Position numbers and translations under genes: made by a program. Of a DNA stretch of 64,000 bases, positions 3,249-36,490 are shown piece after piece (within the stretch, counting starts at the first letter, position 1; each line of letters opens with the position of its first letter). The notes beneath the pieces are model-generated. The model searched no databases. It saw nothing but the letters and a program-made list of their open reading frames with translations, and was not told the DNA's origin. The stretch covers positions 131,888 to 195,887 of the forward strand of contig CAZGIH010000017.1 in assembly GCA_964526195.1 (NCBI GenBank), given 5' to 3'. This stretch comes from an uncultured Chromatiales bacterium (lineage in GTDB: Bacteria > Pseudomonadota > Gammaproteobacteria > Poriferisulfidales > Poriferisulfidaceae).

Positions 3249-3872
3249 GTTGCGGCACTCAATCTATGTGACTAAAATAGAATGAGCGGGTTATACTGGA
3301 ATCCCGTCGTTGCGGCTGGCCCTCAATCTCTAAGCGGCTAAAATTGCTCGCCATACACATGACGCCAAGGCACCGTTGCGGCTGGCCCTCAATCTCTAAG
3401 CGGCTAAAATTCGATTGTCCAGTTGATCGACCGCCAGGTGGTTGCGGCTGGCCCTCAATCTCTAAGCGGCTAAAATGATAAGGCTAATAAGCAACTAAAG
3501 CGGTTCGTTGCGGCTGGCCCTCAATCTCTAAGCGGCTAAAATGTGTGGAAGTTTGACATGACGCCCAAGCAAGTTGCGGCTGGCCCTCAATCTCTAAGCG
3601 GCTAAAATCCATGGGGATAATTACCATCCTCAATAATTGTTGCGGCTGGCCCTCAATCTCTAAGCGGCTAAAATAGGTTGACAAATAGACAGAAAGGTAT
3701 TTCAGTTGCGGCTGGCCCTCAATCTCTAAGCGGCTAAAATAAACGAAGGAGGAAGCAGTAATGGATCACCGTTGCGGCTGGCCCTCAATCTCTAAGCGGC
3801 TAAAATATTAGAAACCATGTTCCGTCAGTAGTCAATGTTGCGGCTGGCCCTCAATCTCTAAGCGGCTAAAAT
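3249..3872 (+). CRISPR. CRISPR array: 9 identical 36-bp repeats (GTTGCGGCTGGCCCTCAATCTCTAAGCGGCTAAAAT), 30-bp spacers, plus a degenerate 30-bp terminal repeat at 3249-3278
   Basis: Full repeats start at 3309, 3375, 3441, 3507, 3573, 3639, 3705, 3771 and 3837 (exact 66-bp period). A degenerate copy (gttgcggcactcaatctatgtgactaaaat) is followed by one more 30-bp spacer. The 36/30 geometry is typical of type II-C. Confidence 0.97.
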
Positions 3873-3881
3873 GCAACCACT

Positions 3882-3919
3882 GAAAGCCCTTGTTTTACAA
3901 GGGCTTTCCTTTTATCTTT
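3882..3919 (+). terminator. Rho-independent terminator between array and cas2 (10-bp stem gaaagccctt/aagggctttc, then T-rich tract)
   Basis: Perfect 10-bp inverted repeat with a 7-nt loop, followed on the + strand by cttttatcttt. It would stop array read-through into the convergent cas2. Confidence 0.6.
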
Positions 3920-3944: not shown

Positions 3945-4289
3945 TCAAAAGAGGACTAGTTGGTCCAATTTTTTTTCACCACTTTCGCTTTTTCCGCCCA
4001 CGAAAGTGCGGGCATTAGCGTATTGTTTATCAGTAATTGTCATCATATGTACCTTGCCACGATTTGGCAAGGCTGAACACACCCTCTTCACTTGAGTTTC
4101 AACTGCCTCTTTGCTTTCGGCAAAACGTAAATAGACTGAAAATTGTGCCATCTCAAAGCCGTGGTCAAGCAAAAAATTTCGAAACTTCGTCGCTGCCTTA
4201 CGTTCAGCCTTTGTCCCTACGGGCAGATCAAACATGACATAAAGCCACATCATTCGATACCCGCTTAAAACTGGCCAATGTGTATTCAT
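3945..4289 (-). CDS. cas2: CRISPR-associated endoribonuclease Cas2 (type II)
   Basis: Motif MMWLYVMFDLP...ERKAATKFRNFLLDHGFEMAQFSVY matches type II Cas2. The start at MNTHW (4289) gives an ATGA overlap with the cas1 stop. The ORF-track upstream extension is rejected. Confidence 0.85.
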   Translation of the reverse strand: MNTHWPVLSGYRMMWLYVMFDLPVGTKAERKAATKFRNFLLDHGFEMAQFSVYLRFAESKEAVETQVKRVCSALPNRGKVHMMTITDKQYANARTFVGGKSESGEKKLDQLVLF

Positions 4290-5191
4290 TGTATTGTGCC
4301 TAACGGTCGCGTCCACCGGGGGAATTCTAATTTTTTGGCCTCTCCCGCATAGCAACGGGCAGCAGAAAGAGTCAAGTGGTGGAGGCATGTAGATATTGGG
4401 CTTGCACCAGTATCTGTATCCATGTCGTAAAAAAGAATCCGCGCAAGTTCTGGTTTTGTGTTTTTGTTTACACCAGTAGAACCCTCTTTCGCGAGATTGT
4501 AGACAAGCATATCTGCGGTTGGCCTGAATGGTTCCATTAGATCGTCGGCGAGGGCAAAGGAATTCCCACGTTGTCGGTGAGCTAAGCCCAAACTGGGGTG
4601 AAGTCCAGCACCCATAATTGCCCTAGCTACGCCCGCACGTAATACCGTATACGTGTAATTCAGCATTGCATTGACGCCCTCTGCATAGCGATCACGGCGA
4701 AAATCTTTGCCAAACAAAAGCGGCCAGTATCTACGTGCCGCTTGAGCCTCTATATTCTCTGGATCCCCGGAGCGTACGGAGCGAGCAAGACGATTGAATC
4801 CTTTATGCGTTGTTCCAACTGTTGCGAGAGTTATACCTTGTGCCTGGATTTTTGCAGAAACAATTTGAGCCCAAAGACGCTTACGCAGGGGCTTGGATGC
4901 TGACGCCTGGTCCGATATCCGCCCACCCTGTTCATAATGCCCGGACGCAGTCCAGAGAAAACCAGCCGGTCGATGATTCACACCACATACTACGAGAGGG
5001 ACACAGCGTTCGGTTAATGCAACTAAAAGACTGTTCGTATACGTAATGCCATGTGCACTTGCAATCACTGCTGCCACATCATCCAGTGGAACCCTCCCGA
5101 TCTCCTCGCCTTGTGATTCAATTGTAAGAAAGCCGCGAAACTTACTGATATGGTGGCCATCCTCGGCAATCTCTACAATTCGCCCGGTCAT
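4286..5191 (-). CDS. cas1: CRISPR-associated endonuclease Cas1 (type II)
   Basis: 301 aa Cas1-like protein. Its start overlaps the cas9 stop (TAATG). Confidence 0.9.
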   Translation of the reverse strand: MTGRIVEIAEDGHHISKFRGFLTIESQGEEIGRVPLDDVAAVIASAHGITYTNSLLVALTERCVPLVVCGVNHRPAGFLWTASGHYEQGGRISDQASASKPLRKRLWAQIVSAKIQAQGITLATVGTTHKGFNRLARSVRSGDPENIEAQAARRYWPLLFGKDFRRDRYAEGVNAMLNYTYTVLRAGVARAIMGAGLHPSLGLAHRQRGNSFALADDLMEPFRPTADMLVYNLAKEGSTGVNKNTKPELARILFYDMDTDTGASPISTCLHHLTLSAARCYAGEAKKLEFPRWTRPLGTIQ

Positions 5192-8100
5192 TAGCAGTGC
5201 TTTATCGGGAAAACTCGACCTATAGAATCAACACGTACAAGGCACGCACTTGCTGTCTTTAAGGTGGAATAACTTTTAATTTCGTAACGGAATAGATCGT
5301 CTGGGTCATTATGACGTTCGCCCAACGAACCTGCCTCGTAGTGAGGTGCGAGTTTCAGACGATTAGCCGAAGCATCCAAACTGCAAACTCTATAGATGGT
5401 TCGACCATTCCCAAAATCTGCCTCCACGAGATCGCCATTGTGTACCTTCATAACCAACTCGGCATTGGGATGTTTGTTGCGCCAGTTAGGTGTGAAGTTG
5501 GGTTGGTTGGCATCGAAGACAGTTACGCCTTCACCCAGCCATTTATCCTGCAATGAATAAATCTCAATGCGGTGATTGTCGCCAGCGGAATAGAGCTTAT
5601 AAAATCCATCGCCATGCTCAACTTTGTACACCGATTTTTCCGTTTTCAGTATTCGAATTCTGCGAATGCCGGAGCTTTCTCCAAATTCAGCTAATGCCTC
5701 CTTCAATTTATGACCAGCTCTTTTTGCGGCATCACGGATTTGTTGAAGATCCCGACGCAAAGAAGCATCATGTACGCGATCTATCTCACTATCTGTCAAC
5801 TCACTGATAGGTTTCCGGACAACAAGATTGTATTCTTTTCCTTCGATTGTCGCTTTAACCTCCCCGTAAGCTGTGCCTTCAAGTAGGGCTCCAGAAGTAA
5901 CGTGGATGTTGCTTTGTGCGTTAGGTGGAATTCCATGATCAGGCTTATGGCTAACAACCAATTTCTTCATTGAATTATCCAGTGCCTCCCAGTACCCCGA
6001 AAAAGGAATTGGGAAACTATTGTTGGGGAAAAGTCTCTCAAGATTCAATTCTTCGGAGCGACCTGATGCTTTTGATATCTGATCCAGCAACCCTATGTCA
6101 GTGCAGGCCAGAACAAACGCATCGACAGCGTGGTGTCTATGGTCTTTCCGATTTTTAATCTTTGTGCCACCTCCGGTTTGGATTGAAGGAATGGCACCAA
6201 GTCGCCACCGAGCTCGTAGCATCGCGGTAAGTCGTCCGGGAGAAGCATCGACACGTTTGCAGATATGCTCAAGATAAGTCTTTGCAAGGCGCGATACGTA
6301 CTGTGTGTCTGTTAGGTGTCGAGCTGCAAGGCCACCTTTCTCCTCAAAATCCTCCATGGCATCAGGAAAGAAGCGCCAAGCTTTTCTGGGAATAACCCGC
6401 TCAGCACGCTCAGCGATTTCAAGAAGTTTTTGGCCGTGCCATGCTTCAGCAGGTGCCTGGTTTAGTTTTTCCCGATTACTTTCACGTGTACACAACACCT
6501 TATTCATGAAACCGTCGTCAAGTGTGCGGGAATAAGGCAAAATATGATCTATTTCTATTTGATCACTGAACAGCGCGCACTTTGATATTTGTTCTCCCGT
6601 GTAGATGCACACTCGTTCATCTGGGGGGAGTTCGTGATACAGTCGCAGGCGAAGCCTGTTTGCATATGTGTCTTCTTCATTCAATGCATTGAGCTGGTCG
6701 CGGTTCCTGTCGTTCGCTTCTCTATTATCTTTGTTTTTCTTGTTTTCTTTTTGCTTACGCTCCTTACTCCACTTCAGTTCACGAGCTAGTTCAACCACAA
6801 TCCCATCTGGTGGGCCGTATGTCGCTATTAGCGCATTGATGATCTTGCGCAGTTGATTGAGTCCAATATGGACAGTCGGATTGGGCACTCTCCCTATCCG
6901 GTCCTGGCTCCCTTCTGGGGCAGATGGTCGAGAGATGACATGACGCGCAAGCACTTCACCATAGTATGGAAGTTTGGTCTGTTGATCGGGCCTCAGATCT
7001 GAGTGGTGTTCATCAATACGCTGGACAGCTTCGTCATAGGTTAAAGGTCGCTGATATATTTCTCCAGTCTCCGTATTCGTACATTCTTCCGATTCAGTTT
7101 CCATAACCCGGACAATATCACGCAACACTGAGCGGCCAAAGTTGCCGTGACCTTGAGGCAAACGCACATCAGAGATTTTCTCGGCCGCCTCCTGCTTCAG
7201 GTTAAATTTGTCTTGAAGCCACTGGTGAAGGCGTTCTTCATCCTCGTCAGACAAAAGACATTCTATAATCTCGTCTTTAGCCGTGCTGGTAAGTGAATCC
7301 CAAGCCTTTCCAAAAGAATTTTTTGCTCTTAGCTTGCTTGCAGTCTGATCCGATTGGAAGCCGTCGCGGCCTAAGCCCTCGTAGTTAAAACGTATGCCAT
7401 CCGGCAGTTGAAGTGCTTTCCTAAGAGCCTCGAATGCGACGACTCTTGATTGCCGCCGCTCCAGTACGGCCACAAGAGCATCGCGCTGGGGAAGAGTCAG
7501 GAAACGCTCCGGGGACCCGGGTCGAACAAGTCGTAGTTGGCACACGTCCTGAAGGATCCGGAATTTCTGAAAGAGCGGATGTGCCTTTGGCGTTCGCTCA
7601 CCCATATCAATTTCAATTCCCTGATACACAAAGACTTTGTTTTCGTCTGGACGCAATGTGCAACGTCCGACAATCTGTGGTTTAAGTGGCCTTTGCTCAA
7701 GGATCGTTTCCCTAATTTTTTCAAGCAATTGTTCAGTGAGAATATCTGGATAGTGAACTTTCTGCTCCGTCCAAATGCAATCAATCTCTTGCTCGACAAG
7801 TTCGCGTGTTGGATAAAAGTCATAGAGATTTTTGCTACCCTTAGATGTCGGCCGGAAGCGCACTGGCGATGGTGAGCCTCCGCCATTGTCATCCTTGCTT
7901 TTCTTGATTCGGTTTCCTTCTCTGTCGATGCGATACCCTTCCTTGTCTCTTCGGTGGCGATTAGCGAGAAATTCGCCAAGCGTCCGAAACTCTTGTTCCT
8001 CTACGATTTTCTCTTTGAGTGCTTGTGCTCCCTGCTTCATCGCACTTTTTTCATTATTATCTGCATCAGAGATCCGATTCGATTTAAATCCTCTTCGTTG

Positions 8101-8487
8101 ATTTATGTGGAACAAGGCACGACCGAGTTCAAACAAATCAAGCCGATGATCCAAAGCCCTGCAACGTAGCCAATAAGGATCAATTTTCTCAAGCTTTTTC
8201 CGCTCATCTTTATCACGAGGCATCAAGCCTGACTCGATCAAAATGGACATTAGACGATCTCGGCGGCGCAAAAAACGGTCCCGACGGCGGCGTGCACTGC
8301 GTGCGTCTCGACGATTTGCAGCCAAGGATGTCTTGGATTTCGGATCTTTTCCCGCTTCATCATTGGGGGTCAAAATGCGCACTCCCGCATCCAACACCCC
8401 CGAGGGGCGCTTATCCGCATCAAGCGTAACGGCACACCAACCAATAGAGTTGGTGCCCATATCCAAACCTAGTCGGTAAGGAGTCAT
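5191..8487 (-). CDS. cas9: Cas9 (type II-C, 1098 aa)
   Basis: RuvC-I at the N-terminus (GLDMGTNSIGWC), arginine-rich bridge helix (RRRRDRFLRRRDR), HNH (IDHILPYS...NKVLC), RuvC-III (HHAVDAFVLA). No csn2 or cas4 is adjacent. Lower GC than the flanking genes. Confidence 0.95.
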   Translation of the reverse strand: MTPYRLGLDMGTNSIGWCAVTLDADKRPSGVLDAGVRILTPNDEAGKDPKSKTSLAANRRDARSARRRRDRFLRRRDRLMSILIESGLMPRDKDERKKLEKIDPYWLRCRALDHRLDLFELGRALFHINQRRGFKSNRISDADNNEKSAMKQGAQALKEKIVEEQEFRTLGEFLANRHRRDKEGYRIDREGNRIKKSKDDNGGGSPSPVRFRPTSKGSKNLYDFYPTRELVEQEIDCIWTEQKVHYPDILTEQLLEKIRETILEQRPLKPQIVGRCTLRPDENKVFVYQGIEIDMGERTPKAHPLFQKFRILQDVCQLRLVRPGSPERFLTLPQRDALVAVLERRQSRVVAFEALRKALQLPDGIRFNYEGLGRDGFQSDQTASKLRAKNSFGKAWDSLTSTAKDEIIECLLSDEDEERLHQWLQDKFNLKQEAAEKISDVRLPQGHGNFGRSVLRDIVRVMETESEECTNTETGEIYQRPLTYDEAVQRIDEHHSDLRPDQQTKLPYYGEVLARHVISRPSAPEGSQDRIGRVPNPTVHIGLNQLRKIINALIATYGPPDGIVVELARELKWSKERKQKENKKNKDNREANDRNRDQLNALNEEDTYANRLRLRLYHELPPDERVCIYTGEQISKCALFSDQIEIDHILPYSRTLDDGFMNKVLCTRESNREKLNQAPAEAWHGQKLLEIAERAERVIPRKAWRFFPDAMEDFEEKGGLAARHLTDTQYVSRLAKTYLEHICKRVDASPGRLTAMLRARWRLGAIPSIQTGGGTKIKNRKDHRHHAVDAFVLACTDIGLLDQISKASGRSEELNLERLFPNNSFPIPFSGYWEALDNSMKKLVVSHKPDHGIPPNAQSNIHVTSGALLEGTAYGEVKATIEGKEYNLVVRKPISELTDSEIDRVHDASLRRDLQQIRDAAKRAGHKLKEALAEFGESSGIRRIRILKTEKSVYKVEHGDGFYKLYSAGDNHRIEIYSLQDKWLGEGVTVFDANQPNFTPNWRNKHPNAELVMKVHNGDLVEADFGNGRTIYRVCSLDASANRLKLAPHYEAGSLGERHNDPDDLFRYEIKSYSTLKTASACLVRVDSIGRVFPIKHC

Positions 8488-8537
8488 TGCGGAATTGGTC
8501 GCACAGCTATAGCGGAACCGGTTAGTGTAATATACAT

Positions 8538-8640
8538 AACTAAGGGTAGCCGCTTAGAGATTGAGGGTCACCCGTTAACAAGCCCTTCGGGGCATAAAAT
8601 TTGAGCCGGGTCGGGCAACTGATCCGGCTCACTTAATTTG
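8538..8640 (+). ncRNA. Predicted tracrRNA (anti-repeat plus two hairpins and a U-tract), divergent from cas9
   Basis: 8548-8567 AGCCGCTTAGAGATTGAGGG is a 20/20 complement of repeat positions 11-30. It is followed by a GCCC-UUCG-GGGC hairpin (8582-8593), a gagccgg...ccggctc hairpin (8603-8630) and uuaauuu. A possible extended -10 (tgTAATAT, about 8526-8533) lies upstream. Confidence 0.65.
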
Positions 8641-8759
8641 GGTAGGTGTTAGATGCGAACGGTGAAAGGTTTAACTTCGGTCATTGAAATCTCAAGCCTC
8701 GTACTCCGAACAGAGCCATAATGCGCCAAAATGAGCAGATTAGCTACTGCCGCGATCTC

Positions 8760-9344
8760 ATGCCCACGTCTCTCGTTCGACCTCCTCCGCTGACCGGCAT
8801 GATCCTTGCCGGCGGCATGGCACGCCGCATGGGCGGACAGGACAAGGGGCTGATCCCCTACCAAGGGCGCCCATTGATCGCCCATGTCCTTGAGCGCCTC
8901 GAACCGCAAGTTCAGGCCATTCTGATCAACGCCAACCGCAGTCACGACCAGTACGCGCAGTTCGGTCACCCCGTGATCGCGGATGCGGAAGACGGTTTTC
9001 TAGGGCCGCTTGCCGGCATTCTCGCCGGATTGCGCGCCGCTCGAACGGAACTGCTGCTCTGCGTCCCCTGCGACAGCCCGGAGGTCGGCCCGAACCTAGC
9101 GGCCAAGCTTGCCTCTCCTTTTGCGCAGGCAGGAACCCGGATCGCCGTTGCAAGTTGCGCCGGACGCCTGCAGCCGGTCTTTGCAGTGCTGCACACTGAT
9201 CTTTCGGATGCCCTGGACGATTTTCTTCGTCACGGCGGGCGTAAAATTGACGAATTCTATGGCGCGCAGGGCTTCGAGGAAGTCCCTTTCGAAAACCCCG
9301 ATGAATTTCGAAACATCAACACCCACGAGGAATTGACGCTCTGA
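8760..9344 (+). CDS. mobA: Molybdenum cofactor guanylyltransferase MobA
   Basis: LAGGMARRMGG...DKGL motif. The length from M14 matches E. coli MobA (194 aa). Confidence 0.85.
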   Translation: MPTSLVRPPPLTGMILAGGMARRMGGQDKGLIPYQGRPLIAHVLERLEPQVQAILINANRSHDQYAQFGHPVIADAEDGFLGPLAGILAGLRAARTELLLCVPCDSPEVGPNLAAKLASPFAQAGTRIAVASCAGRLQPVFAVLHTDLSDALDDFLRHGGRKIDEFYGAQGFEEVPFENPDEFRNINTHEELTL

Positions 9345-12471: not shown

Positions 12472-12935
12472 GCAAGGCGTCCGGAATTCGGCGCTAAATG
12501 ATAGCCCCGTCGAAGGCAATCCCGCAACCAGTCGAACAGGAATCGGTTACCGGAATAGCGGTGAGACAACCATTCCGTCCGAGAACTCCCTTCCGGAATC
12601 CGACCCGGGAGTAGCGAAATCCCGTGATGAGCAAGTAGTTCGACCTGCCGGGAATCCCGGTACAGGCGCAACTGTACATCCGGTGGGAACTCCGTCCCCT
12701 CTCCGTCTCGACAACAGGCCAAACCAAGCGTGGCCGTATGCCGAGTATGCTCATAGAACACCAGTTGCAGCGGTGGTTGATCTGGCAGGGAGTCATCGAG
12801 ATACGAATCAGGTTGCATGGCAGGGTTGCGCAGCGATGGGCACAGGGCGAGCAGGCACTGGTAGTTGACGTCGTAGAGCGCCATCAACGTGGCAGGCTGC
12901 GGGGTGGTGGCCAGGGATGTGGAGAATTCAGTCAT
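12468..12935 (-). CDS. DUF1249 (YqiB-like) family protein
   Basis: Alignable to E. coli YqiB (LCPSLRNP / VRLYHD~LRLYRD / FLADWLRYCL~FLFDWLRDCL). Start is uncertain (12935 or 12887). Confidence 0.5.
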   Translation of the reverse strand: MTEFSTSLATTPQPATLMALYDVNYQCLLALCPSLRNPAMQPDSYLDDSLPDQPPLQLVFYEHTRHTATLGLACCRDGEGTEFPPDVQLRLYRDSRQVELLAHHGISLLPGRIPEGSSRTEWLSHRYSGNRFLFDWLRDCLRRGYHLAPNSGRLA

Positions 12936-13176
12936 GATCCGGCGTGCCTGTGCGTATCTTCCGGGCGACCGACTCCATCTCCGGGTCCGGGGCGGCTTGT
13001 GCCCCCAAGAACATTTCCTGGAGTTCGGGGTCCGGGCATTCCAGTAGCCGCGCGAATGCCGCACGCTCGGCGGTGGAAGCCTGAGGATATTCTTGTTCCA
13101 GATACCGCATCAGCATGAGATCCAACTCCCGAGTGCCACGCCGGCAGTGCCAGCGCAACCGGTCCTGCTCCGACAT
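12928..13176 (-). CDS. sdhE: Succinate dehydrogenase flavinylation factor SdhE (YgfY/DUF339)
   Basis: 82 aa with the RGTRELDLMLMRY...ECPDPELQEMF signature. Confidence 0.8.
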   Translation of the reverse strand: MSEQDRLRWHCRRGTRELDLMLMRYLEQEYPQASTAERAAFARLLECPDPELQEMFLGAQAAPDPEMESVARKIRTGTPDHD

Positions 13177-33641: not shown

Positions 33642-36490
33642 GTCCTCGCTTCGGCATCCAAGGAATCCAGTGCCTTCGCCTTTCGATTCTCCTCGACGAC
33701 ACGTTGCGCGCTGCCGATGATTTCCTCGGCAACAACCGGTTCCAGCGCTACGTCGACCTCCAAAGAATACCACCGTTCACGGGCAAAACGCTCGCACTTG
33801 ACCGCATCCTTGGGCGTCATGATTACCGCGTGACCATCCGCAAAGTCGAGTTGTCCGGCCCGGAAAGCGTGGTGATCCTCGTAGAGGTGCGGAATCGCGT
33901 CGATCCCGGCGCTGGCCAAGGATTCCAGGAACCGGTGTGGATTCCCGATCCCGCAGACCGCATGCACGGTCTGCCCCGCAAAGCTGGACAGCGGGGTCGT
34001 GCTGCCGTCAAGCAAAGAGCGCAGGTGTTTCACCTGCAAGTCAAACCGGTGTTCTCCTGGCTCCGGATCTCCTCCGTGCACCAAGATCCAATCGGCCAAA
34101 CGTGCACGCCCGAGCGGCTCTCTCAACGGCCCGGCAGGCAGGCACAAGCCGTTGCCGTGCCGGCGTTTGCCGTCCACCACCAGGATCTCGATCTCCCGCG
34201 ACAAGCCCAAATGCTGCAACCCGTCATCCGACAAGATGATGCTGACGGTATGCCGCTCGCAAAGCGCCTGCGCGGCAGCAACCCGGTCCGGGCCTGCAAA
34301 CACGGGACAGCCCGTCTGTGCCGCAATCAGAACCGCTTCCTCCCCGACCTCATCGGGGCTGGTCGCGGCATCAACCTCTCGGGGCCAGGTTGGACTGTCG
34401 CCCCGGTAGCCCCGGCACACGATTCCGACCGACACCCCCAAGCTTCGAAGCCGGAGCGCAAGCCAGACCACCAGAGGGGTTTTCCCGGTGCCTCCGACGC
34501 TCAGGTTGCCGATGACTGCCACAGGCACGGGCAAGGCGGCCGGCCGATTCAGCCAACGACGCCAGAGCCGTCGCAGGAACACGCCGGTGCGATACAGCCA
34601 ACTCAGCGGTCGCAAGGCCCACACCCAGCGGCTATCCTCGTACCAGACAGTCTCAGCAAAACGCGTCACCCAGGACTGATGCCGGGTGCTCTCTTCCTCC
34701 AGCAGTTCCCCGCGGCGGGGCGGGCGTTCTTCGACATCTCCCGTATCCTGGAATTGATGCTGATAGAGCTTTCTGTAGACCTGATTCCTCTGAATCAACT
34801 CTTCATGCGTGCCCTGTTCGACGACCTCGCCTTGATCCAGGACGACGATCCGGTCTGCACGTTCCACCGTCGACAATCGATGCGCGATGATCAGGGTGGT
34901 GGAAACTTCCATGATCTTGTCTAAGGCCTCCTGCACATACCGCTCGGACTCGCTGTCCAGCGATGAGGTCGCTTCGTCCAGGATCAGGATCGGTGCTCGC
35001 TTGTACAGGGCTCGGGCCAAGGCCAGGCGCTGTCGCTGACCCCCAGAGAGCTGTACACCCCCTTCCCCGATGATGGTCTCCAGGCCTTGTGGCAGGTGAG
35101 CCACAAATTCGTCGACGTGCGCACTGCGCAGCGCCAACTCCAGGTCATGCTGCTGATCCGGATCCACTCCATAGGTGATGTTGTTGCGCACCGTGTCGTT
35201 GAACAGCACCACGTTCTGTCCCACATAGCTGATCAGCCCCCGCAGATTGGACAACTGCAGGTCGTTGATCGGAATGTCGTCGATCCGGATTTCTCCACTC
35301 TGCGGGGCGTAAAAACGCGGCAACAGGTTGGCGAGGGAAGACTTGCCGGAACCGGAACGCCCGACCAAGGCCACGGTCTCGCCACGTCGGATCGTCAGCG
35401 AGACATTGCGAAGCGCTTCGCGATCCGTGTTGCGGTAACGCAAACTGATCCGGTCATAGACGATCGAATGCTGCAGATCCTGCTTGGAATGTTCGCCCTG
35501 ATCCTGTTCCACCGGGGTATCCAGCATCTGGAAAACCTGTTGTCCGGCGGCGATGCTCTGTTGCAGCCGGGTGTTGACCTGCACCAGATTGCGTGCCGGA
35601 GCCAGCAGCATCAGCATGGCGAACATGAACGATACGAACCCACCGACCGTAATGGTGCTGAGCACTCCTTCCAGCGTCACCAGGTAGACGATGCCGGCCC
35701 AGGCCAGCCCGACCAGCAGCATGATGATCGAAGAGACCAAGGCCGCCATCTGTTGCGTGCGAACCTGTCGCTTCCGGAAATGCTCGGTCGTCTCATCGAA
35801 ACGTGTTTTTTCCATCGTCTCGGCCTGGAACACCTTCACGACCCGGTAACCTTGAATTACCTCCTGGGCGTTCTGCACGGTCGCAGTAAGCGCCTCCATC
35901 ATGCGGTGGCTAAGCTTCCGGACTCTTCGGTTGCTGCTTGGAATCAGCCAGGCAAACACCGGCACGGCCGCCAGGAAGGCAACCGTCAGGATCCAACTCA
36001 CGTACAGCATCCAGCCGACCAGGCCGATCACCATCAGGCTGTCCCGGATCAGGATAGTGAGGCTTTTCGACGCCGCCGTTGTCACGCCCTCGACGTGGCT
36101 GGTGATGCGCGCCAGGAAATCGCTGGAAGCCGTATGGTCGTGGGTTTCCGCTGGAAATTCGAGCAGGCGTGCAAACATTTTCCGCCGCAGGTCCCGGACC
36201 AGGCGCGCACCAATCTGCGCCATGCAGGAGGCGCTGAGGTACGAGCCGACCGCTCGCAGCACGAAAATCCCGATCAACGCCAGCGGTACCCAGCGGATGA
36301 CGTCCGGCTGCTGCTCGACGATCGCGCCATCCAGGATCGGTTTCATCAGCGCCGACAATGCGGGGCCTGTTGCAGCCTCCATCGCCATGCCGAGCACCGC
36401 CAATGTCAGGATGCCGCTCTGACCTTGCAGGGCAAGCCGCAGCAACTGCCGATAAATGTCCATGCCGGAACGGCGCGTAATCTCGTTCAT
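33638..36490 (-). CDS. msbA-lpxK: Fused lipid A ABC exporter MsbA (N-terminal, about 590 aa) + tetraacyldisaccharide 4'-kinase LpxK (C-terminal, about 330 aa), single 950-aa ORF
   Basis: ABC transmembrane and ATPase motifs ([23 protein letters not shown]). These run through a roughly 30-aa linker with no stop and no Met into the LpxK N-terminus (LRPLSWLY...[13 protein letters not shown]). Confidence 0.85.

Follow-up and report, generated by a model that had tools for sequence, protein, structure and literature searches.

A predicted tracrRNA gene upstream of and divergent from cas9 in a type II-C CRISPR-Cas locus of an uncultured Chromatiales bacterium

In Neisseria meningitidis and Campylobacter jejuni, the tracrRNA, the small RNA that base-pairs with crRNAs and brings them into Cas9, is encoded in the interval separating cas2 from the CRISPR array. 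Type II-C arrays are read in the direction opposite to the cas operon, from promoters borne by the repeats, and their first repeat is often mutated (PMC3737331, PMC12080349); mutated extra repeats are common in this subtype (PMC12080349). An anti-repeat located upstream of cas9 was reported by Chylinski et al. as the common type II-C arrangement (PMC3737331). A characterized Cas9 of clade IX, Ghh1 (1094 aa), came from a hot-lake mat metagenome and is accompanied by the repeat GUUGCGGUUGGCCCCUGAUCUCCAAGCGGCUAUGGU and a tracrRNA that reads AGCUUAGCCGCUUGGAGAUCAGGGGCCACCCGUUAACAAGCACCUUGAGUGCAAAAAAUUUC... (Gasiunas 2020, PMC7606464, Supplementary Data 2). Purified Ghh1 cut DNA in vitro with its own sgRNA and needed spacers longer than 20 nt (PMC7606464).

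Ghh1 Cas9 is 55% identical, over the first 399 aa (the residues available), to the Cas9 encoded in the 64-kb stretch of DNA that we analyzed (the window). The repeats of the two systems share 28 of 36 positions, and the Ghh1 tracrRNA matches the putative tracrRNA of the window at 49 of 61 aligned positions over the first 60 nt (~80%). An identical CACCCGUUAACAAGC motif, a small hairpin, and an A-rich linker are common to both RNAs. They differ after the linker, where the window RNA has one terminal hairpin and Ghh1 has two, and at the 5′ end of the anti-repeat, which is AGGGU in the window and AGCUU in Ghh1. The features of the Ghh1/Sdo-type guide class (clade IX), namely CCGUUAACAAG, a short hairpin, and an A-rich linker after the anti-repeat, together with a Cas9 of the same clade, were all found here. 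Because both the Cas9 and the tracrRNA match those of Ghh1, the window element is, judged by its sequence, a new member of a guide-RNA class already validated in vitro for Ghh1. A full-text search with the repeat and tracrRNA motifs found no CRISPR paper in main texts and returned a match only in the Gasiunas 2020 supplement.

The cas operon and the array

Profile searches of the window identified a complete minimal type II locus on the − strand, consisting of cas9 (5191 to 8487; 1098 aa; TIGR01865, 603 bits), cas1 (4286 to 5191; type II, NMENI subtype; TIGR03639, 236 bits), and cas2 (3945 to 4388; TIGR01573, 66 bits, residues 47 to 138 matched). The listed cas2 ORF probably extends too far in the 5′ direction, and its true start probably lies later. 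We assign the locus to type II-C because neither csn2 nor cas4 was seen there. Beyond cas2 lies a CRISPR array (3309 to 3872, + strand) of nine identical 36-nt repeats, GTTGCGGCTGGCCCTCAATCTCTAAGCGGCTAAAAT, and eight spacers of 30 nt; its crRNAs correspond to the + strand, and the three cas genes and the nine-repeat array all fall within 5.3 kb.

Each array repeat ends in GGCTAAAAT, which contains a −10-like TAAAAT box without a TG extension (for example, 3339 to 3344). The same position in the repeats of relatives is occupied by TATAAT, TACAAT, or TAAACT, with TATAAT or TACAAT in close relatives, which suggests, by analogy with Neisseria and Campylobacter, that crRNA promoters may be borne by the repeats; in arrays of the Neisseria and Campylobacter type, the −10 box is usually extended (TGnTAnnnT) and drives one crRNA per repeat. 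Directly 3′ of the last repeat is a terminator-like hairpin followed by CTTTTATCTT (3882 to 3908, + strand), which supports transcription of the array from the + strand. A degenerate extra repeat of 30 nt (3249 to 3278, + strand), whose first half carries an internal deletion, occupies the cas-distal end, 30 nt before repeat 1, and is thus first in the direction of transcription; it fits the tendency of type II-C systems to carry extra repeats with disabling mutations (PMC12080349). When the spacers were searched against phage and plasmid collections, only chance-level matches were retrieved (E ≥ 2), and spacers without a known target are a weak point for the activity of the system.

The Cas9 of the window has thousands of relatives, the nearest of which are 53 to 68% identical, plus one database protein that is 100% identical. 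The cas9 ORF is intact with conserved catalytic motifs, and its ATG at 8487, which retains the YRLGLD RuvC motif, is backed by an alignment of 31 orthologues. With 1089 aa, the identical database protein (P0001) falls 9 residues short of the window ORF, suggesting a start at the second ATG. That start drops MTPYRLGLD (window 8461 to 8487, − strand), including the conserved RuvC aspartate, and places the beginning of the database protein model of this cas9 9 codons too late. On the other side of the intergenic region, the mobA ORF has a listed start at 8721, and the MobA profile matches only from residue 25; an ATG near 8799 yields the usual MILAGG start (window 8721 to 8800). For these reasons, the intergenic region between cas9 and mobA, 233 nt by the listed start, may in fact measure ~310 nt.

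The locus invites comparison with better-known systems. Its predicted tracrRNA gene, upstream of cas9 and divergent from it, is placed unlike those of N. meningitidis and C. jejuni; given the report of Chylinski et al., the position is the usual one. The extended −10 TG of Neisseria is missing from the window repeat, and the similarity of the window Cas9 to Nme-type Cas9 structures is low (~170 to 195 bits). In other respects the window resembles N. meningitidis and C. jejuni, which have the same minimal cas9-cas1-cas2 operon, an array running opposite to the cas genes, GUUG-starting repeats that end in a −10-like box (TAAAAT in the window), and a degenerate oldest repeat (PMC3737331, PMC12080349). 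The type II-A tracrRNA of Streptococcus pyogenes likewise has its gene upstream of cas9 and on the other strand, and it begins with a 5′ anti-repeat followed by a nexus, hairpins, and a terminator, but it belongs to another subtype and has no sequence or model similarity to the window RNA; unlike that of the window, the S. pyogenes array is codirectional with the cas genes.

Anti-repeat, fold, and promoter of the predicted RNA

We are confident in the view that positions 8539 to 8640 of the + strand are the tracrRNA of this type II-C CRISPR-Cas9 system, a prediction made from sequence comparison and folding. The gene was delimited by its fold, by the covariance model R1 described below, and by homologous elements in relatives, which put the predicted 5′ end at ~8539 to 8544 and the 3′ end at ~8636 to 8642. 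We infer the expression of this RNA, its exact ends, and the route of crRNA maturation.

The anti-repeat (8547 to 8579, + strand) lies in the cas9-mobA intergenic region, 56 nt upstream of the cas9 ATG and on the opposite strand. An initial annotation of this DNA described a 20-nt perfect complement to the core of the repeat; AGCCGCTTAGAGATTGAGGG at 8548 to 8567 (+ strand) is exactly such a complement, and the perfect run in fact amounts to 21 nt (8547 to 8567). The imperfect complementarity that it noted in the flank is also present, in that UCACCCGUUAAC (8568 to 8579) pairs with the 5′ end of the repeat, GUUGCGGCUGG, through G.U pairs, with one mismatch and a 1-nt bulge. Cofolding with the repeat, a check that had been suggested, gave a duplex of −55.7 kcal/mol for the + strand. 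When up to three mismatches were allowed, the only sites in the 64-kb window were the nine array repeats and 8548 to 8567, with 0.01 expected by chance. A better anti-repeat elsewhere would speak against the assignment, and none was found in the 64 kb by the mismatch scan, by a duplex scan, or by model R1. The duplex scan gave a second repeat-complementary site at 36410 to 36445 (+ strand; −45 kcal/mol), which is probably due to chance because it falls inside a 950-aa ORF on the − strand and has no R1 match.

Downstream of the anti-repeat, the RNA is predicted to be highly structured. The + strand interval from 8538 to 8645, essentially the segment that the initial annotation proposed to fold, reaches −45.9 kcal/mol (z = −5.0 versus shuffles), and the region 3′ of the anti-repeat folded alone has a z of −6.1. 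The GCCC-UUCG-GGGC hairpin named in that annotation is found in both the sequence and the fold at 8582 to 8593 (+ strand); this nexus-like hairpin is preceded by an invariant GUUAACAAG and shows covariation among relatives. It is followed by a conserved single-stranded linker, AUAAAAU (8594 to 8600, + strand), which reads ACAAAAU in relatives (alignment A2). The second, GC-rich hairpin that had been described is there as well (8602 to 8631), although its stem is 13 bp, including two G.U pairs, rather than 7 to 10 bp. With its tail, CUUAAUUU (8632 to 8639), it forms a terminator-like end (8602 to 8639, + strand). That much of the proposed terminator stands; the U-rich tail is interrupted, is weaker than the U tract that had been implied, and barely passes a terminator scan. 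The nexus-like hairpin, the terminal hairpin, and the terminator-like end thus form a structured tail on the same strand as the anti-repeat.

The promoter given in the original description is wrong in its register. A TGn-TAATAT extended −10 had been proposed; the −10-like TAATAT is present at 8528 to 8533 (+ strand), but the bases before it are GTG, which places the TG at −14/−13, one base out of the TGn register. No −35 box with at least four of six matches was found for the tracrRNA gene, the best −35/−10 pair scored 6 of 12, and the promoter scan listed nothing at 8528 to 8533. Relatives have TTGACA-type −35 boxes at the corresponding position and a predicted start at a run of G residues 10 to 13 nt before the anti-repeat. 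The window RNA is shorter than theirs by ~10 nt of 5′ anti-repeat and leader, and for this reason the window tracrRNA could be a weakened copy. A similarity between window positions 8492 to 8505 and the 5′ leader of one relative (L001) was dropped as an 8-mer coincidence.

The 52 nt that separate cas9 from the tracrRNA gene in the window contain no recognizable cas9 promoter, and consequently the cas9 transcript may begin within the tracrRNA gene or on its far side and cross the element. In three relatives, a candidate −10 box of cas9 overlaps the tracrRNA −35 box, a weak signal.

Related loci and a possible cas9-repressing circuit

To place the element in an evolutionary context, we scanned relatives of the window Cas9, taking one genome per species, which yielded 80 loci with Cas9 identities of 38 to 65%. 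Arrays were present in 57 of the 80, all of them downstream of cas2 and with the repeats oriented as in the window. In 49 of the array-bearing loci, as in the window, the best match to the repeat outside the array was found on the strand opposite to cas9, 56 to 640 nt upstream of that gene; the same arrangement is common to ~68 of the 80 loci. The spacing between cas9 and the tracrRNA gene in the window (56 nt) is the shortest among all loci.

Anti-repeats and repeats have changed together in these genomes. Across 44 loci with 31 distinct repeat cores, the repeat of the same locus was, with few exceptions, the best partner of the anti-repeat. Duplex position 33 was never complementary across the 44 loci, which marks a conserved bulge. 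In every locus the anti-repeat is followed by CGUUAACAAG, a 4-bp hairpin with a variable loop, and then (A/G)CAAAAU. The 3′ part consists of one or two hairpins, the last of which is a GC-rich stem with a U tail. In alignment A2, 98.8% of cells for the 4-bp hairpin were paired, and 36 cells carried double changes, compared with 7.6 in shuffles; none of 500 shuffles reached the observed number of double changes, and controls in which the hairpin was slid along the alignment were at most 47% paired. The terminal GC-rich hairpin is present in all relatives, and in the subgroup with one hairpin, which includes the window, its pairing is kept through some double changes in an alignment that is imperfect.

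Covariance model R1 was built from 41 relatives (clade members), with the window left out. It matched the window at 8538 to 8608 (+ strand) with 58.4 bits (E, ~9e−15). The array repeats scored 27 to 31 bits on the − strand, matching the anti-repeat part only, and R1 found nothing else above noise over the 64-kb window. Among 31 loci outside the training set, 18 had full-length matches upstream of cas9 and on the opposite strand; in three exceptional loci, the element was beside the array (two loci) or on the other strand (one locus). The Rfam tracrRNA models gave no match at the gathering score over the whole window or at E values up to 10 for positions 8450 to 8750, a result to be expected, since the conservation of tracrRNAs does not extend from one subtype to another (PMC3737331). 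Taken together, the conserved position and strand, the coevolution of the anti-repeat with the repeat, the covariation of the hairpin, and the R1 match (E, ~1e−14) agree with the initial annotation in its central claim, that of a tracrRNA upstream of cas9 and divergent from it.

Several loci had additional features. L025 (5530 to 5670) and L034 (4420 to 4455) contain near-full-length solitary repeats that lie between cas9 and the tracrRNA gene and are oriented as in the array; that of L025 matches at 33 of 36 positions and is accompanied by a second partial copy, and these solitary repeats may form a mini-array. L015 carries a second full-length tracrRNA-like copy (12924 to 12995; 78 bits) beyond the array, besides the one upstream of cas9.

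The long form of the S. pyogenes tracrRNA, tracr-L, represses the cas9 promoter. Workman et al. (2021) recognized tracr-L in type II-A by three properties: a match of at least 11 bp to the cas9 promoter, a mimic of the lower stem, and a PAM by the target. The published descriptions of tracr-L that we found concern type II-A only, and a 2025 paper remarked that no homologue of tracr-L had been observed in Neisseria.

In the closer relatives of the window (L010, L019, L034, L007, L041, and others), the predicted tracrRNA opens with (UU)GGGUGACC, a segment that can pair with GGCCACCC in the 3′ part of its own anti-repeat and therefore mimics the 5′ end of the repeat. This duplex has a mean of −12.8 kcal/mol, versus −7.7 kcal/mol for shuffles, and includes compensatory cases such as GGAUGG:CCAUCC. 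Of this mimic, the window keeps just GGGU:ACCC (8544 to 8547 with 8571 to 8574).

Six sphingomonad-type loci with long cas9-tracrRNA spacing (L052, L054, L066, L072, L073, and L076) carry, on the tracrRNA strand, a longer repeat-like lower stem 36 to 97 nt before the anti-repeat; the tracr-L-like regions in three of them lie at L052:5705-5945, L076:5690-5925, and L054:5735-5970, all on the tracrRNA strand. In all six loci, the 10 to 13 nt before the repeat-like stem recur exactly once more, 4 to 133 nt upstream of cas9, and hardly any other repeats of 10 nt or more occur in the regions concerned. In L052 and L076, the second copy occupies the whole spacer of the cas9 promoter, which has good −35 and −10 boxes on either side of it. 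The 3′ flanks of the matches are alike and GG-rich, reading NGG and then NRTW. By their sequences, the six loci appear to possess all three tracr-L properties, and Cas9 self-repression of the tracr-L type is possible in these type II-C relatives.

Alternative readings and proposed mode of action

The weakness of the promoter, which lacks a −35 box, the truncation of the 5′ part relative to relatives, the interrupted U tract, and the failure to find protospacers in the phage and plasmid collections would also be seen if the element were a solitary repeat, inverted and decayed, that was left over from array rearrangement and yields no functional RNA, with a Cas9 that is inactive or served by another tracrRNA outside the window. 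We consider this improbable: the modules that follow the anti-repeat are preserved intact and score 58 bits against a model made from other genomes, the 1098-aa cas9 has kept its reading frame and catalytic motifs, the nine array repeats are identical, and the 64 kb holds no other tracrRNA-like site. The choice of strand requires separate consideration. Pairing with the repeat is nearly symmetric between the strands (−55.7 versus −50.3 kcal/mol), and therefore pairing alone cannot decide which of them is transcribed; since transcription of cas9 may cross the element, its mRNA leader, starting to the right of 8640 and so including a repeat-like sequence, might act as a cr-like or antisense regulator on the − strand, instead of or besides a tracrRNA. 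An antisense leader would be compatible with the tracrRNA, but a functional − strand transcript seems very improbable to us. The RNA 3′ of the repeat-like part is without significant structure when read towards cas9 (z = −0.8), for which reason a − strand tracrRNA was dropped; the fold of the + strand is 13 kcal/mol better than that of its reverse complement because of G.U pairs; the structured tail and U-rich end 3′ of the anti-repeat exist on the + strand only; and the promoter boxes and U tails of relatives sit on the tracrRNA strand. The initial annotation had the array and the tracrRNA transcribed rightwards and the cas genes leftwards, an orientation that fits the array terminator, the structureless − strand, and the behavior of type II-C systems (PMC3737331, PMC12080349). 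The repeat itself starts with GUUG and ends in the TAAAAT box on the + strand, with the degenerate repeat cas distal.

The relatives that carry a repeat-like lower stem and a guide-like segment of 10 to 13 nt matching the cas9 promoter, together with the 4-bp remnant of the mimic in the window, raise the question of whether the window RNA is mainly a natural single guide that, like S. pyogenes tracr-L, directs Cas9 to repress its own promoter. We regard this as hardly credible, given that no seed of at least 7 nt beside the remnant matches within 8380 to 8900, no repeat of at least 10 nt occurs in the intergenic region, and the inferred start site is too close to leave room for a guide; the window shows no sign of tracr-L repression. 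The same remnant and the shortest cas9-tracrRNA spacing are the basis of a different, evolutionary suggestion, which we think unlikely, that the window tracrRNA is the stripped-down end state of the Cas9 self-repression module of its relatives, with the brake lost and cas9 expressed unrepressed.

The preferred reading, that 8539 to 8640 is a conventional tracrRNA, leads to the following proposed mode of action. A + strand RNA would be made divergently from cas9; its transcription would start a few bases past TAATAT and terminate at the 13-bp hairpin and U-rich tail. Its 5′ anti-repeat (8547 to 8579) would pair with the repeat part of the + strand crRNAs transcribed from the array (3309 to 3872), forming a duplex of 21 Watson-Crick pairs followed by an imperfect lower stem with a 1-nt bulge. 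Cas9 would be expected to bind this duplex along with the module of GUUAACAAG, the 4-bp hairpin, and AUAAAAU, and the terminal hairpin, and the loaded complex would then cut DNA that matches a spacer and is flanked by a PAM. Maturation of the crRNAs might proceed by RNase III cutting of the long duplex, by transcription from the −10-like TAAAAT boxes of the repeats as in Neisseria and Campylobacter, or by both.

This arrangement is typical of type II-C and ordinary, and it entails no new biological principle. The annotation supplies the missing RNA partner of an uncharacterized 1098-aa Cas9 that is distant from solved structures, and it fixes the reading direction of the array. An sgRNA can be designed directly from it by joining a spacer (22 to 24 nt), GUUGCGGCUGGCCCUC, GAAA, and window positions 8563 to 8640 as RNA. 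The possible tracr-L-like circuit in the type II-C relatives is a more interesting lead than the window tracrRNA itself.
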